A DNA stretch of 39,646 nt, from the sequence record JN600960.1. One strand, given 5' to 3'. The notes under the pieces are model-generated. The model was not told where the DNA came from and searched no databases. It saw nothing but the letters and a program-made list of their open reading frames with translations. The stretch comes from Enterobacteria phage IME10. The translations under genes were made by a program, and so were the position numbers. This document shows, piece after piece, positions 7,774 through 13,504 of this stretch. Position 1 is the stretch's first letter. Each line of letters begins with the position of its first letter.

Positions 7774-7796
7774 ATGCAATCACATCATGATTGCAT
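7774..7796. promoter_or_regulatory. Candidate Mnt operator: perfect 9-bp inverted repeat ATGCAATCA-N5-TGATTGCAT
   Basis: Palindrome read directly in the mnt-tailspike intergenic region, about 25 bp upstream of the tailspike start. Confidence 0.4.
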
Positions 7797-7821
7797 CATA
7801 TCATTCGTCTGGAGCAATGAA

Positions 7822-9642
7822 ATGTCAGATATCACCGCAAATGTTGTGGTAAGCATGCCTTCGCAACTATTCACTATGGCGCGTTCTTTTAAAGCCGTAG
7901 CCAATGGAAAAATTTATATCGGTAAAATTGACACTGACCCGGTAAATCCTGAAAACCAGATTCAGGTTTATGTGGAAAACGAAGACGGTTCTCACGTTCC
8001 TGTTGCACAGCCAATCATCATTAACGCTGCTGGTTACCCTGTATATAATGGACAGATTGCCAAATTCGTAACTGTGCAAGGCCATTCGATGGCTGTATAC
8101 GATGCGTATGGTGTGCAGCAGTTTTATTACCCGAATGTGCTGAAGTATGACCCTGATCAGTTGGAGCAACGATTGTCTTCACCTGGTGGCGCAGTGTATA
8201 TAGGTGGCGTTGGTGGTGGAAATTTATCCCAAATAATAAATGCGGTATCTCCAGAACAGTTCGGAGCAGTAGGAGACGGATTCACTGATGATATTGAAGC
8301 TCTCGATGCTTGCATGGCTTTTGCGAGAGAAAAACCATTAGACATTATATTTAGTAAGACATACGCAATTTCACGTCCTTATGTTATTTACATGGGAAAT
8401 AAAAAAAATCCTCGCCATATTGGTCAAGGGTCCATGGCGAAAATAATATTAACCACAACAACAAAATCTGGATTGGGTAGTGACTCATACGGTACTGATT
8501 TGAATGTAAACGCAGCTGTTATTGTAGCCGCGATCACAGGTACAGGGCATAACCAACAACCCCAGAACTTTCGGTGGGAAAACATTGACCTTGACACCAC
8601 TGTAGATGCAGATTACGGCATGTACACGTCAAAAATGCAGTCCGCGGCAGTCAGTAATTTCAGGACGTATAATTTCAAGACAGGTATTCAGGATAACGGT
8701 TCCTGGAATACGTTGTATGAAAACATTAAGATGTCTGCCCACTCCACCGTAGGTTTCCGTAAAAATGCTGGTACTAGTACTACTATCCGTAACTGTTACG
8801 TAGAGAAATCGAAAGTTGGTTATCGTGTTTACAGCGGATACTCTCAGATTGAAGGGTGTGCATGCGACACTAGCACTGATGTCTCGTATTGGATTGAAGG
8901 TAACCCAGTAGCTTTAAGTAGTGACAGCACGTTTTCTCTTGTGTCATGTGGCGCAGAGAATTCAGGGACGGCCGTGGTACGAATTACTGGGACACTAACA
9001 GCAAGTATTATCAACTTTCAATCATTTAATTGGTCACAACAGCAAGACCCGACACCAGATTGTTTCTTAGATATTCAGTCCAACACTGCTAGCATTTCAG
9101 TTGAAGAGGTCAGATATCTTGGTGTTGCTCGCAGGATAAAAGACACTGGAACAAACAACACAGTTATCATAAGAAATATGACGACTCGTGGTACAGATGT
9201 TAGAGATCAGGATACCTATCCAAATAGCACTAGAATTATTGAGCTTAATCATAACGGTGTGCGAGTAGCGACAGGTTACGATAAAAATGGGATTTTGATC
9301 ACTGAAGATAATATGACCGATTCAATCGGAAGTACTACATGGTCAAGGCTATTTAACAAACAAAAAATTTGGCGCTATAGGGGTATAGTAACAAGAACAA
9401 GCGGTCAGAGTTACGGAAGGTTACAGATCAATATTCCGTTCACTATGGCTGATAATAGTTATAGCGTTGCTATTACACCAGAAGTGTATCACACCGATAT
9501 GGCAACATATGGTTACCAATGTTCAGTAGGCCCAACTGATAAAACAACAACATCATTCTTCATCAACGTAAACTCTGGAACAGGTAACACGTCATGGAAC
9601 AGTATAGCTGTTGACGTAATTGTGATGGGGCTTTCTATCTAA
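7822..9642 (+). CDS. Tailspike protein: P22-type N-terminal head-binding domain plus a different beta-helix receptor-binding domain
   Basis: Start [11 protein letters not shown] with GGAG RBS 7 nt upstream; first ~115 aa closely resemble the P22 gp9 N-terminus as recalled; remainder differs and contains the [11 protein letters not shown] motif typical of pectate-lyase-like beta-helix depolymerases. Confidence 0.85.
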
Positions 9643-9886: not shown

Positions 9887-11353
9887 ATGAGAAATATGAA
9901 ATTACTCTCAAAAAGACTAGTGGTAATTGTATGTTCTGTATTTATCCTTTCAATTATATTGTGCATACATTTAAGAAAGGGAAACTTTAACCTCAATAAT
10001 ATAAGTAGCGTACAAAATGCTAATGACATATCAACAACCAATAGTATATTGAATGATGATTTAGTGTTTTCCGAAAGATATGATTCCCTTTTTTATTACT
10101 TCGTGCATTCGTTTGTTAAATATTCTTCAGATGATTATGCTCTTGTTAATTATCCTGGGATGCTATCGACGAGTGGGAATAAGACAAACCAAGTTGAGGG
10201 TACGGCAAGGACGCTACCATTAATTGCTGCATGGGTTTATTCTGGAAGAGATTCAACCATTATCGTTAATGGTAATAAGTTAAATATAGTAGATCTGATT
10301 AGGAGTAGTATATTGTCTGGAACTAATCCAAGTTCTGTAAACTATTGGGGGGATATACATGATTATGATCAGAGAATTTTAGAGGCCGCAGATATAGTAA
10401 GAGTCTTATGGCTTACAAAAAAAGAGATATGGAATCACTTAAAAGATAATGAAAAAAATCAGATAGCTTTGTGGCTGGAGCAAGCTGCATCGGCGAAAAC
10501 TGTAAAAAACAATTGGCTACTAGCTCCATTCATAATTCAGAATTTTTTGCAGGATAATGGATATACAGTTAAGGTTAATTACAAAAATTACACAGACTTT
10601 AAGAAAAACTATCTTGAACACGGATGGTTTAGAGATGGAAATGATGGAGAAGTAGATTTCTATAATACTTGGGGTATATCCTATGACTTATTCTGGATAT
10701 CACTTATTACAGATTATGATAATGCTTTTATACTAAAAACACTATCTGAGTCGGCTGATTTCACTTCACATTTAATATCTAAAAATGGCATCCCGCTTGT
10801 TGGTAGAAGTATTTGCTACAGGACTGCAGCACCCACACCTGTTCTAATTGAAGGTCTATTAAAAAATGATGGATATCATCAAGGTTTAGCAAAATCAGCA
10901 TTAGACTATACGTGGAAATATTTTGCAAGCCACAATGCATTAGTATCAGATACATTATCAATGGGGTATTTTAATAATGACAAGCGCTTTGTTGATAATT
11001 ATAGCGGGTCAGGAAGTTGCCTGTGGGGAATAAGGTCGTTAGTTGTCGCTTATATGAATGATAAAAAATCATATATCTGGAATGGGAAATATGAGAGATT
11101 GCCTATTGATAATTCTGATTTCATTATCAATGCAGATAAACTTGGTTGGATAGTTGAGGGTAATAAAGATAGTGGAGAGATAAGGGTTATTATACCTGCA
11201 AACGAAAAAAACTCACCAAAGATAAATGATACCAATAAACTTAAAGAAGTTATATGGAGAGTTCTTGGTAAAGCAGGAAGAACTAATCAACATGACATTG
11301 AGTACCTAAAGCCATATTACTCATCACTAGAGCCTATATCTGACGTTGAGTGA
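9887..11353 (+). CDS. AT-rich cargo gene: membrane-anchored protein of unknown function (N-terminal TM helix, ~450 aa extracytoplasmic domain)
   Basis: 488 aa ORF with visibly lower GC than flanks; hydrophobic N-terminal segment LVVIVCSVFILSIILCI; sits between tailspike and attP/int, the classical lysogenic-conversion slot of P22-like phages. Confidence 0.6.
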   Translation: MRNMKLLSKRLVVIVCSVFILSIILCIHLRKGNFNLNNISSVQNANDISTTNSILNDDLVFSERYDSLFYYFVHSFVKYSSDDYALVNYPGMLSTSGNKTNQVEGTARTLPLIAAWVYSGRDSTIIVNGNKLNIVDLIRSSILSGTNPSSVNYWGDIHDYDQRILEAADIVRVLWLTKKEIWNHLKDNEKNQIALWLEQAASAKTVKNNWLLAPFIIQNFLQDNGYTVKVNYKNYTDFKKNYLEHGWFRDGNDGEVDFYNTWGISYDLFWISLITDYDNAFILKTLSESADFTSHLISKNGIPLVGRSICYRTAAPTPVLIEGLLKNDGYHQGLAKSALDYTWKYFASHNALVSDTLSMGYFNNDKRFVDNYSGSGSCLWGIRSLVVAYMNDKKSYIWNGKYERLPIDNSDFIINADKLGWIVEGNKDSGEIRVIIPANEKNSPKINDTNKLKEVIWRVLGKAGRTNQHDIEYLKPYYSSLEPISDVE

Positions 11354-11388
11354 TAACTTTATATTAATTGTTATTTGACATATGTTTT

Positions 11389-11409
11389 AAGGTGGCATTA
11401 TGCCACCTT
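11389..11409. terminator. Bidirectional intrinsic terminator hairpin between the convergent cargo gene and int
   Basis: Perfect inverted repeat AAGGTGGCA-TTA-TGCCACCTT followed by TT; overlaps the int stop codon. Confidence 0.5.
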
Positions 11410-12591
11410 TTCATCAAGCCAGTCCGCCCACCACTGCATCATTTCTCTGCGCTTATCGAGATACTGAGCATGGTTGTAAATCCCACGCACAGATCCGCCG
11501 TTGGCATGTGCCAGTTGCACTTCAATAGCGTCAGCAGGCCATTCGTGCTCGTTCATAATTGTGCTGAATTCATGCCTGAATCCGTGACCGCTTTCCAGAC
11601 CCTCATAGCCGATTTGTTTGATCACAAGCAATACTGCGTTCTCGCAGATTGGCTTCTTCTTATCGTTGCGCCCGGCAAAAACAAACTCTGATACTGGTTT
11701 AGTGATTGAGCTTAGTGTAGTGAGAAGTTCAACTACCTGGTCTGACATAGGAACCACATGAATTTTGCGTCCCTTCATCACACTGGCGTCAATGGTGATA
11801 ATCATGTTTTCAAAATCGACGTTCTTCCATTGCATGGAACGAAGCTCTTTTGTTCTGAGGGCTGTGTAGCGTAAAACTTTTGTCGCAATGAGCGATACGA
11901 TACTTCCTGAAAATGTTGCAAGTGCTTTGTTGAATGCCGGGATCTGGTCGGCAGGAAGAAACGGGAAGTTCTTCTTGCGGTATCCCTTCATGGCGTCAGC
12001 AAGGTCAGGTGCCGGGTTATATTTAGCCCTGCCGGTGACAATAGCGTAACGGAAAACCTCGCCGCATCTTCTGCGTGCTTTGTTGGCTCGCTCCATTGCA
12101 CCGCGATCTTCAAATCTGCGGATTACTTCCAGCAGTTGCATCGGCTCAATATCCAGAATCTCAAGGCCGCCGATGATAGGTAAAATGTCGTCATCAAACA
12201 TTTTTGCAAGTTCAGTCGCATACCCTACTGACCAGACTTGCTTCTTGTGCTCGTACCATTCCTTGTAAATCGCACTAAAGGAATTGTTGTTAGACGAAGC
12301 CTTTTTCGCTTTTACCGGATCGATGCCAACCGAGATGTCTTTCCTCGCGGTCCATGCTTTATCTCTTGCCTCCTGCAAAGTCATTAGCGGATATTTTCCT
12401 ACGGTCAGGATTTTCTCCTTACCGTCAATCTTGTAGCGAAGCTGCCATACCTTTTTCCCTGACACAGGGACATAAAGGTACAGGCCATTACCATCGAGTA
12501 GGCGGTATGGTTTTTCTTTCGGCTTTGCTGCTTCAATCTGCTTAACGGTGAGCATGGGTAAAAATCCGGTGGGTAAAATTATTTTATCCAC
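11398..12591 (-). CDS. int: Tyrosine integrase, P4-like (DUF4102-type N-terminal arm-binding domain)
   Basis: C-terminal catalytic motifs HGFRHEFST and GIYNHAQY; N-terminal LTVKQIEAAKPKEKPYRL; annotated start is GTG at 12591, a more likely ATG start (MLTVKQ) is at 12555. Confidence 0.9.
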   Translation of the reverse strand: MDKIILPTGFLPMLTVKQIEAAKPKEKPYRLLDGNGLYLYVPVSGKKVWQLRYKIDGKEKILTVGKYPLMTLQEARDKAWTARKDISVGIDPVKAKKASSNNNSFSAIYKEWYEHKKQVWSVGYATELAKMFDDDILPIIGGLEILDIEPMQLLEVIRRFEDRGAMERANKARRRCGEVFRYAIVTGRAKYNPAPDLADAMKGYRKKNFPFLPADQIPAFNKALATFSGSIVSLIATKVLRYTALRTKELRSMQWKNVDFENMIITIDASVMKGRKIHVVPMSDQVVELLTTLSSITKPVSEFVFAGRNDKKKPICENAVLLVIKQIGYEGLESGHGFRHEFSTIMNEHEWPADAIEVQLAHANGGSVRGIYNHAQYLDKRREMMQWWADWLDEKVA

Positions 12592-12600
12592 TTTTTACCC
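12556..12600. repeat. Cluster of GGGTAAAA / TTTTACCC octamers, candidate integrase arm-type binding sites
   Basis: GGGTAAAA at 12556 and 12571, inverted copy TTTTACCC ending at 12600; same octamer recurs at 12791 and 12803 on the other side of the att core. Confidence 0.4.
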
Positions 12601-12716
12601 GTCATGGAGTGCGGCTGTCAACGATCTGAAGCGAACCATGACGAACTGTAAATCTACGGAAGGCTTGATATTCAGGGGATTTTGCGGACTGGTACGGATG
12701 AGAGCGAACTGATAAA

Positions 12717-12731
12717 TGGTGTCCCCTGCAG
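12717..12731 (-). other. Candidate attP core matching the 3' end of tRNA-Arg (argW)
   Basis: Minus strand reads CTGCAGGGGACACCA, which matches the 3' end of E. coli argW including CCA as I recall it; lies between int and xis and is flanked by CAGGGGATT direct repeats (12673, 12749). Confidence 0.45.
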
Positions 12732-12790
12732 ACATCTACTTGAAGCGGCAGGGGATTGATTGGAATGGTGTTTTTTAGATGTGAAAAAAA

Positions 12791-12810
12791 TTTTACCCGC
12801 TATTTTACCC
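12791..12810. repeat. Two direct TTTTACCC octamers, candidate arm-type sites
   Basis: TTTTACCC at 12791-12798 and 12803-12810, overlapping the xis stop. Confidence 0.35.
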
Positions 12811-13005
12811 ATTGGCGCGGCTTAAGAGCTTATTTTTGAATTCACAATGGTCACGATATAACCATCTTGCTCGCCCGTGGATAACTTTGGCTTTAGGCAG
12901 GTCCCCGGACTTAATCCGGTCATAGATGAAGGTTTTACCGAAGCCAGTATCGGCCATGATGAATTTCAAATCAACCAGTGAATCAGGCTGTAGTTCGTGT
13001 TGCAT
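12805..13005 (-). CDS. xis: AlpA-family excisionase / transcriptional regulator
   Basis: 66 aa; winged-HTH sequence DLKFIMADTGFGKTFIYDRIKSGDLPKAKV typical of AlpA/Xis partners of P4-type integrases. Confidence 0.75.
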   Translation of the reverse strand: MQHELQPDSLVDLKFIMADTGFGKTFIYDRIKSGDLPKAKVIHGRARWLYRDHCEFKNKLLSRANG

Positions 13006-13024
13006 GAGTGCTATCTCCGAATAG

Positions 13025-13040
13025 GGAATCGAACCTGCAA
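13025..13040 (-). other. tRNA-Arg-like T-arm fragment (no intact tRNA)
   Basis: Minus strand reads TTGCAGGTTCGATTCC, matching the T-stem/loop of argW as recalled; no acceptor or anticodon arm follows. Confidence 0.3.
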
Positions 13041-13049
13041 ATCAGGCAA

Positions 13050-13070
13050 TAAAAAAACCGCATTGATGCG
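13050..13070 (-). terminator. Intrinsic terminator upstream of xis on the leftward transcript
   Basis: Minus strand CCGCA-TCAA-TGCGG followed by T7. Confidence 0.55.
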
Positions 13071-13149
13071 GCGATGGTAGGTCTGGATATCTTGAGAAAT
13101 GAACTGGCCTCATCGAGTGTGAGGCGGTGTGATTTCTTTATTTCCACTC

Positions 13150-13365
13150 TTAATGTTTGTCAGTGAATGGTTTCTCCATCTCCATTAATGCCTTATTCAT
13201 CTCATTTCGTAACTCTATAGCCATCCTGACGGCTTCAACTTGTGCAGGATGTCGGTTAATTGCTGGAGAATATCGTCGGGAACGAAGGATTGAGAAAACA
13301 AAGATAATGCAAGCAACTATCTGAATTGCATTGCATGTTATTGATACAATGTGAATTGCAGCCAT
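13150..13365 (-). CDS. Small membrane protein (71 aa), unknown function
   Basis: Hydrophobic N-terminus IVSITCNAIQIVACIIFVFSIL followed by a basic tail; bracketed by two intrinsic terminators. Confidence 0.5.
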   Translation of the reverse strand: MAAIHIVSITCNAIQIVACIIFVFSILRSRRYSPAINRHPAQVEAVRMAIELRNEMNKALMEMEKPFTDKH

Positions 13366-13373
13366 CTACTACC

Positions 13374-13396
13374 CCCAAAAAAACCGCCATCAGGCG
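13374..13396 (-). terminator. Intrinsic terminator
   Basis: Minus strand CCGCC-TGAT-GGCGG followed by T7, immediately upstream of the 71-aa gene. Confidence 0.55.
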
Positions 13397-13504
13397 GCTT
13401 GGTGTTCTTTCATTTCTTCAATTCGAATATTGGTTACGTCTTATTCGATGCGCAATCCTGGTATTTCGCCTTTTGATATTGCTAAGTCATAAATTTGCGC
13501 AGCA

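Follow-up and report, generated by a model that had tools for sequence, protein, structure and literature searches.

Introduction

The site-specific recombination modules of prophage KplE1 (CPS-53) of E. coli K-12 and of phages HK620, Sf6 and Kapi1 encode near-identical integrases, share an identical excisionase and an identical 16-nt core, and keep the same gene order, torI - attP - intS (PMC2951348, PMC3509656, PMC8787464). In each of them attP lies between the integrase gene (int) and the excisionase gene (xis) (PMC8787464), so that the two genes are found at opposite ends of the integrated prophage (PMC8787464, PMC3509656). The borders of KplE1 are formed by the duplicated core CTGCAGGGGACACCAT, and its attL contains five TorI sites, arranged in two blocks, whose GTTCG, GATCG and GTCCG cores have been mutated experimentally (PMC2951348). 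Here, we describe the corresponding region of Enterobacteria phage IME10 (sequence record JN600960.1; its whole stretch of 39,646 nt is referred to below as the window), with emphasis on a second, short piece of the host tRNA-Arg gene argW, the T-loop box, which directly precedes the excisionase gene torI.

In P4, the integrase gene is negatively controlled by Int and the recombination directionality factor (RDF) Vis, which act through att-site binding. Rho-dependent termination is said, in a 2013 PNAS paper by Menouni, to limit the expression of torI. In KplE1, the recombination proteins act also as repressors, and their sites overlap the integrase promoter, PintS (PMC2951348).

Results

A second piece of argW precedes the excisionase gene

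Two separate pieces of argW are present in the window, each of them once. The first, CTGCAGGGGACACCA at 12717-12731 of the minus strand, is identical to nt 61-75 of E. coli K-12 argW and is a part of the attP core, while the second, the T-loop box TTGCAGGTTCGATTCC at 13025-13040 of the same strand, is identical to argW nt 46-61. The pieces share argW nt 61 and together tile argW nt 46-75, the last 30 nt of the gene, even though they are separated by 293 nt, with torI and the P arm of attP in between. A sequence-only reading of this DNA had recognized both, as the argW 3' end and as the argW T-arm beyond torI, and our alignment found both matches to be exact.

Exact 16-mers of argW are expected by chance about 1e-3 times in both strands of the window (60 x 79,292 / 4^16), and for 10-11-mers of argW the number of further occurrences in the window is about that expected by chance. 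Given the low expectation for a 16-mer, and given that the box lies on the same strand as the core, 293 nt off, and abuts it in the tRNA register, chance cannot explain the box. As the sequence-only reading had anticipated, the window does not contain an intact tRNA gene: ARAGORN predicted no tRNA in it and Rfam gave no tRNA match. Neither a cloverleaf nor a contiguous tRNA segment indicative of a pseudogene was found in the window, only the separated 16- and 15-nt pieces.

The heart of the box, GTTCGATTCC (13025-13034, minus strand; argW nt 52-61), corresponds to the T-loop with its closing pairs and is invariant. The torI Shine-Dalgarno sequence (SD), GGAG (13015..13018, minus strand), is separated by 6 nt from the box and by 9 nt from the ATG (13005). 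Reading the minus strand, the order of elements is a terminator with its T-run, TTGC-N5-TTGC (13049-13037), the box (13040-13025), GGAG (13018-13015) and the torI ATG. The identical 16-mer stands before torI in K-12 KplE1 (L003:10476-10491), in HK620 (1677-1692) and in Sf6. We also considered the box as a coding part of a longer TorI. As its frame relative to the ATG varies by lineage (leaders of 18 vs. 19 nt), and as an in-frame TGA precedes it, the box does not lie within a longer TorI.

In the RefSeq annotation of K-12, the 15-nt argW copy at the KplE1 attR (L003:10785-10799) is listed as a pseudogene, pawZ, and the box bears no annotation. Each of the two directly copies a short part of the argW 3' half and lies at the prophage end that bears torI. 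However, integration accounts for pawZ, which is the crossover core itself, whereas the box represents the preceding 16 tRNA nucleotides, lies 293 nt off on the other side of torI, and takes no part in the exchange. A description of the box was not found in the accessible literature, and searching full texts for torI and the box sequence jointly returned irrelevant matches only. The box is apparently an undescribed feature of the known IntS/TorI module.

The box is conserved among distant relatives of torI

Homologues of torI were gathered from phage records, from one genome per species, and from IMG/VR contigs. All the TorI-family proteins found were from Enterobacterales. The box heart GTTCGATTCC occurs shortly before the SD in Erwinia phages Midgardsormr38 and phiEt88 and in Salmonella phage g341c, in prophages of Serratia, Pantoea, Edwardsiella, Enterobacter and Phytobacter, and in many IMG/VR contigs; the Citrobacter version has one extra T. 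It is invariant before torI homologues of only 36-50% protein identity, including that of phiEt88, whose TorI homologue is 36% identical. Midgardsormr38 carries two tandem boxes 16 nt apart (CAGGTTCGATTCCCGTCAGGTTCGATTCCC; L006:1950-2000), just before its excisionase gene.

The exact 10-mer was present in 42 of the 86 distinct 70-nt leaders (at least 20 upstream contexts), as compared with about 0.005 exact 10-mers expected arithmetically among 86 leaders. Eight leaders contained the form with the additional T, and 36 contained none. Over 124 loci the spread of best matches was bimodal: 72 were exact, 11 had the additional T, 1 had one mismatch and 3 had two mismatches, the rest being at the chance level. 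The columns flanking the box showed a majority identity of 38-77%, and the flanks of distant lineages no longer align. The gap between the box and GGAG ranged from 4 to 20 nt, and from 4 to 13 nt if the upstream copy of the Midgardsormr38 pair is set aside. Leaders without the box were of three types: those in which an upstream gene and xis are fused (Chronis, and the Yersinia and Morganella types), those with a clean deletion (TTATTGCCTG|GAGAT), and those with an unrelated leader, as in vB_EhrS_49. In the E. coli lineage, which is shallow, the box and its flanks alike show single-base variants, and these are uninformative on selection. The finding that the box is intact or absent, and rarely decayed, points to purifying selection and not to a decaying scar; judging from these alignments, the box is very likely maintained by such selection, with occasional loss.

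Contiguous identity to argW around the box amounted to 10-16 nt, and to 13-16 nt in several lineages, which makes the origin of the box from the tRNA plausible. To this extent the suggestion in the sequence-only reading that the box is a relic can be retained, but a recent or decaying scar does not fit with its fixation in K-12, HK620 and Sf6 or with the invariance of the 10-mer far beyond them. The accompanying view of the box as a displaced T-arm fragment has to be abandoned: the attP cores of many relatives keep their own T-loop remnant (TTCGATGTA beside TGCAGGG), which makes the box an additional copy rather than one half of the core that was moved away. Because of the same remnant beside the overlap we also rejected a split core, in which torI and the P arm would have been inserted into an ancestral 30-nt identity block. 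The idea that the box junction lies exactly at the integrase cut site was also dropped, as the Serratia and Pantoea copies run on to argW nt 63.

Nearly every module examined had an argW-type core; one Yersinia-type core (AGTCGGGGACACCA) could be matched to no tRNA. We also scanned viral contigs for GGTTCGAATCC, the more common T-loop, ahead of an SD and an ATG: 104 of the 122 matches listed were true tRNA genes, and no excisionase-like gene was among the matches listed. A likeness of CTGTTCGATT in Enterobacter-type leaders to the TorR box (CTGTTCATAT) involves only GTTC within the invariant part, and we consider it a coincidence.

The box does not follow excisionase specificity

The excisionases of these modules fall into two types. 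Modules with the RDF helix GKTF(I)Y (the window, L006, L007, L008) have five GTTCG-type repeats between the core and int, while those with the helix T[AS]KYFY (phiEt88, L185, L188, L192) have CRTTACC repeats at the positions of the GTTCG repeats. The arm-type sites are GGGTAAA or GGGCATA, and switch independently of the RDF type. In all the combinations of RDF repeat and arm-type site the box is identical; it was found in 25 type-1 and 14 type-2 distinct leaders, and is equally frequent with both RDF types.

The argW T-arm TTGCAGGTTCGATTCCTGC, on the other hand, was invariant in the 8 argW variants taken from attL junctions, and the Proteus T-loop is the same as that of argW. A constant T-arm implies that the integrase domains that read the left arm of attB are constant as well. 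The box heart GTTCGATTCC has the sequence of the attB left (B) arm as far as the start of the overlap, and the C half-sites in the attP of relatives (TTCGATGTA, TTAGGTGTC and similar) have TTCGAT in common with it. Since the host tRNA and the cognate part of the integrase are the only constant partners, the box is most likely an integrase site. It would be a mimic of the B arm, a candidate DNA site for the core-binding and catalytic domains of IntS, and the integrase bound there would influence the expression of torI or help to hold the attP/attR complex together. In such a scheme, the level of free integrase would set the output of excisionase, or the copy would stand in for attB inside the attP/attR complex. 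What was found before torI is not a complete core-type site (C-O-C') but only its left, B-like half, at a distance of 4-20 nt from the SD.

An attP module with the box as an integrase-read mimic of the B arm is the explanation that we tentatively prefer as a whole, and we would rate it as plausible, if somewhat short of probable. Its central element, the integrase as the predicted binder of the box, is possible but rather doubtful when taken by itself. The corresponding general statement, that these phages copy the argW T-loop into the leader of the excisionase gene and that the integrase domain reading attB may also read the copy, is more doubtful still.

Several observations weigh against a role of the box as an integrase site. 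Among the half-sites, GATTCC (B type) matches the palindromic C/C' consensus, GGTGTC, least well, and a box selected for integrase affinity alone should have come to resemble the C form. An inverted partner half-site was not found at the fixed 7-bp distance, nor any GACACC-like partner. Moreover, the box holds GTTCG, which is the published TorI core, together with ATTCC, which is one base away from the type-2 repeat ATTACC. The box is missing from about 40% of the distinct leaders, including those of the intact-looking phages Chronis and vB_EhrS_49, and is thus dispensable. Shared ancestry and mosaic exchange of leaders could inflate its apparent conservation among Salmonella- and Enterobacter-type contigs. 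Binding or expression data on the box were not found in the accessible literature, and the torI promoter, PtorI, has been referred to as "non-characterized" (PMC2951348).

Alternative explanations of the box

The sequence and position of the box would also suit an operator at which TorI autoregulates its own gene by binding to GTTCG in the leader. GTTCG is found in the box at 13030-13034, right at the torI ribosome-binding site, and GTTCG, GATCG and GTCCG are the TorI site cores that were mutated in attL (PMC2951348). Two boxes, as in Midgardsormr38, would be expected of cooperative RDF binding, the GTTCG of the argW T-loop in attL lies 31 nt from the TorI site I1, a spacing that roughly matches the helical phase of the other sites, and the ATTCC half resembles the type-2 RDF repeat ATTACC/ATTTCC. 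However, the box does not co-vary with RDF specificity: GTTCGATTCC is unchanged where the five P'-arm repeats became CRTTACC and the helix changed with them. The ATTCC half is kept in type-1 modules, where it should be unneeded, and GTTCG is followed by A in the box and by C or T in the P'-arm TorI sites. We therefore regard such an operator as unlikely, albeit worth considering on the sequence data. The box could also act in the torI mRNA leader or be read by a conserved host factor, for instance as a T-loop look-alike that influences the start of translation, processing or stability. Its indifference to the switches of both RDF and arm-type sites would be explained by a host factor or by host-tRNA identity. 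The box is downstream of an intrinsic terminator in the E. coli lineage and in several other modules, and 4-20 nt upstream of the SD in all box-carrying leaders, so that it would be in the 5' leader of read-through transcripts. Its orientation relative to torI is constant, its UUCG/UUCC can pair with CGGA/GGAG of the SD, and a T-arm-like 6-bp hairpin with another stem sequence is present in Edwardsiella and Pantoea stewartii prophages. Nevertheless, the hairpin is not conserved, as a stem of at least 4 bp was seen in 4 of 34 distinct contexts and mostly 1-3 pairs surround TTCGATT. The fold of the window leader is ordinary (z = -1.44), Rfam gave no family match above noise, and a 4-bp pairing of the box with the SD is too weak alone, and the bases involved are invariant. 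An action in RNA or through a host factor seems to us about as improbable as a TorI operator, and one specific version of it, an RNA mimic of the T-arm or a long-range pairing of box and core in the torI transcript, was rejected in view of the unconserved stem, the ordinary fold and the lack of an Rfam match.

Readings without a regulatory role for the tRNA match are still less probable. If the box were a functionless, neutral scar left long ago by imprecise excision or by a rearrangement of att, this would account for the 16 contiguous tRNA bases of the E. coli lineage, which are more than a 10-nt site needs, and for the Serratia and Pantoea copies that extend to argW nt 63; these suggest that the T-arm piece was probably copied once. 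The absence of the box from many modules and its single-base variants in E. coli prophages, which occur at about the rate of the flanks, point in the same direction. A scar would not be expected to stay invariant over 10 nt amid otherwise unalignable leaders of TorI proteins that are 36-50% identical, to leave almost no decayed copies, or to be duplicated in one phage, and nothing has been displaced from an attP core that retains its own T-loop remnant. This makes a functionless scar quite improbable. The explanation that follows from the annotation of HK620, in which a phage integration promoter and a cII site are marked at the equivalent of 13012-13050, is very unlikely. According to it, the box would belong to pI, a promoter for int activated by cII (pI is also annotated in Sf6), and its match to the tRNA would be incidental. 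As in lambda, where pI lies likewise just upstream of or overlapping the xis start, an analogy that the HK620 authors used in annotating the box region, a transcript starting near 13010 would give int without a translatable torI. However, TTGC-N5-TTGC (13037..13049, minus strand), the cII-binding site of the putative HK620 pI, has a spacing of N5, while the canonical spacing, as in lambda pI, is N6. The TTGC pattern occurs 7 times in the window vs. 3.2 expected, a number that 5 of 100 shuffles reach, so it is not clearly enriched, and many prophages have TTAC (as K-12 does) or TTTC in place of the first TTGC. Other box-bearing lineages lack the TTGC pair and a shared -10, or any conserved hexamers, a promoter scan was empty here, a spacer has no reason for invariance, and lambda has no T-loop sequence. 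TTGC-N5-TTGC is probably not a real cII site. Finally, the box could be a boundary sequence at the edge of the int-xis module, kept as a point of recombination between phages: Sf6 annotates bsq2 over the box area, no more than about 10 nt separate the box from the point where the window ceases to be homologous to lambda-type or Stx phages, and one and the same leader is found with at least 20 different upstream contexts. Boundary exchange of this kind is conceivable for the longer leader common to Salmonella- and Enterobacter-type contigs, but 10-16 bases are very short for homologous exchange, the Erwinia, Serratia, Pantoea and Edwardsiella elements share the 10-mer only, and the choice of a host T-loop is left unexplained, all of which makes this the most improbable of the explanations considered.

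The attP of the IntS/TorI module in the window

The region 12556-12810 is almost certainly the attP of an IntS/TorI module of the type found in KplE1/CPS-53, HK620, Sf6 and Kapi1. The integrase, the excisionase, the core, the gene order, the TorI and arm-type sites and the junctions all agreed with the KplE1/HK620/Sf6 module, and PintS and the 16-nt T-arm piece before torI are likewise as in the known modules, with five TorI sites in each case. Only the neighbours differ: int is flanked by a DUF2264 gene, and past the terminator the early-left region is a different one. The product of intS (11398..12555, minus strand) is a tyrosine integrase of the P4 type, in which an arm-binding N-domain is combined with central and catalytic domains (Pfam matches to Arm-DNA-bind_3, Phage_int_M and Phage_integrase). 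It has 99.0% identity to K-12 IntS (382/386 aligned positions, stop included), and its start is the ATG at 12555 (MLTVKQ..., as in K-12) and not the GTG at 12591 given in a mechanical list of open reading frames (ORFs). The torI gene (12805..13005, minus strand; hkaC of HK620, gene 18 of Sf6) encodes the excisionase, or RDF, which is 100% identical to K-12 TorI, HK620 HkaC and Sf6 gp18.

The 16-nt attP core (12716..12731, minus strand), which consists of an exact match to argW nt 61-75 followed by T, is identical to the attP cores annotated in HK620 (AF335538) and Sf6 (AF547987). Together with KplE1, these cores support the proposal of the sequence-only reading that the phage integrates into a tRNA-Arg gene through an attP between int and xis, which is already known for this module. 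The lysogen junctions also agree with this core. Records of the attL type end at window position 12731 (the CUS-3 "attL core", and VT2phi_272 with tRNA-Arg), matches of the attR type in hundreds of E. coli chromosomes begin at 12716/12717 and run rightwards through torI, and the attL (argW, then TTTATCAGTTCG...) and attR (core, then CCTTGTG...) of K-12 part from the window exactly outside the core. IntS exchanges strands inside this 16-nt copy of the argW 3' end, and integration places intS beside the repaired tRNA gene (attL) and moves torI to the opposite prophage end (attR). In K-12, intS is at attL and torI is at attR.

The core of g341c is a perfect inverted repeat, in which GGTGTC and GACACC flank TGCAGGG. 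From it we infer a 7-bp overlap, TGCAGGG, at 12724-30 (argW nt 62-68), flanked in the phage by the half-sites C, GATGTC (12731-36), and C', GACACC (12718-23), with GATTCC as the half-site on the bacterial left arm. In Klebsiella phage Chronis (L004) and at the attL junctions L215, L230 and L243, the core carries the tRNA 3' end without an encoded CCA (...GGGGACACTTG or ...GGGGACACTT), so the argW of such lysogens would need the CCA-adding enzyme.

The octamers that the sequence-only reading had noticed on both sides of the core correspond to arm-type sites, as IntS arm-type sites contain a "TAAA" motif (PMC2951348). A motif map placed four of them in the P' arm (12556..12600, minus strand), on the int side, where they read, in the tRNA sense, TTTTACCC at 12556-63 and 12571-78, GGATAAAA at 12582-89 and GGGTAAAA at 12593-600. 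The P arm, on the xis side, has two, both GGGTAAAA on the minus strand (12791-98 and 12803-10), which overlap the 3' end of torI; an attP repeat annotated in HK620 at 1441-1463 corresponds to them. The P' sites overlap the -10 element of PintS (TAAAAA, 12592-97, minus strand), and its -35 element is TTGACA (12616..12621, minus strand), in agreement with KplE1, where the P' sites of attL share the conserved TAAA, the -10 is "TAaAAa" and the -35 is TTGACA (PMC2951348). The TorI sites are spread over 12622..12709 of the minus strand: I5, GATCG, at 12622-26; I4, GTTCG, at 12632-36; I3, GTTCG, at 12642-46; I2, GTCCG, at 12685-89; and I1, GTTCG, at 12705-09.

The direct repeats reported earlier as flanking the core were found as CAGGGGATT on the plus strand, one in the P' arm (12673-12681) and one in the P arm (12749-12757). 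The AAWCCCC(TG) motif is kept at the position of 12673-12681 in Midgardsormr38, vB_EhrS_49, g341c and phiEt88. The CAGGGGATT repeats represent CAGGGGA of the core in inverted form, and AAWCCCC is conserved in all the diverged modules examined.

The phage and the genes around the module

The window is a genome of the P22 type, similar to HK620 and Sf6, and the best matches to its 11300-13400 region were phages HZ41, HK620, HF4s, N7, Sf6 and HK633, with 96-97% identity. According to the ORF map, a tailspike gene (7774-9642, plus strand) is followed by the DUF2264 gene (9887-11353, plus strand), which encodes 488 aa with a hydrophobic N-terminus (Pfam E = 3e-63). Its place between the tailspike gene and int is the usual slot for O-antigen-modifying (lysogenic conversion) genes in P22-like phages; in Sf6 the same slot holds the oac acetylase gene, and in K-12 KplE1 gtr-like genes. 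An ORF of 46 aa (12672-12812, minus strand; hkaB of HK620, gene 17 of Sf6) is annotated in several phage records. It has no Pfam match and spans the attP core, so that integration would split it in two, and it is probably not a gene.

A terminator scan revealed an intrinsic terminator (GCCGCATCAATGCGGT and a T-run) at 13051-13072 of the minus strand, which closes the upstream early-left region. Reading that strand, the terminator is at 13072-13057 and the T-run comes after. Homology of the int-xis module to other phages begins just past this terminator. The lambda-type phage mEp506 has the terminator in common with the window, after which homology stops, and has the true lambda pI and xis there. 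The 13049-13125 segment of the minus strand, in which a hairpin, GCCTCACACTCGATGAGGC, is followed by the intrinsic terminator, resembles the end of a small transcript and is common to mEp506, Stx phages and K-12 KplE1, with the hairpin kept and the terminator diverged in the latter. A comparison of this segment with Rfam gave sub-threshold matches only (isrK, 12.4 bits; ncS025, 14.1 bits).

Discussion

The attP of IME10 in itself adds nothing new, as it represents one more HK620/Sf6-like phage with the best-characterised tRNA-Arg integration module. The useful outcome is that the "extra" tRNA fragment proved to be a conserved box before the excisionase gene, present also in the model systems KplE1, HK620 and Sf6. 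This box probably has a function. The role that we propose for it would mirror the control of PintS in KplE1, with the RDF gene as the target instead. KplE1 PintS and P4 use arm-type and RDF sites inside attL, whereas the candidate in the window is a core-type, attB-like half-site outside the attP of about 250 bp.

Excision of such modules is controlled mainly via the excisionase gene, and a box at that position is a concrete and cheap target for mutagenesis in K-12, with CAAGCTAAGG as the scrambled counterpart of GTTCGATTCC. The natural swap of the excisionase helix together with its repeats (GTTCG vs. CRTTACC) offers a ready specificity pair for engineering the directionality of recombination. 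If the integrase does read the box, a core-type site outside att would here serve in regulation, and a phage would have a reason to keep another piece of the tRNA that it targets.

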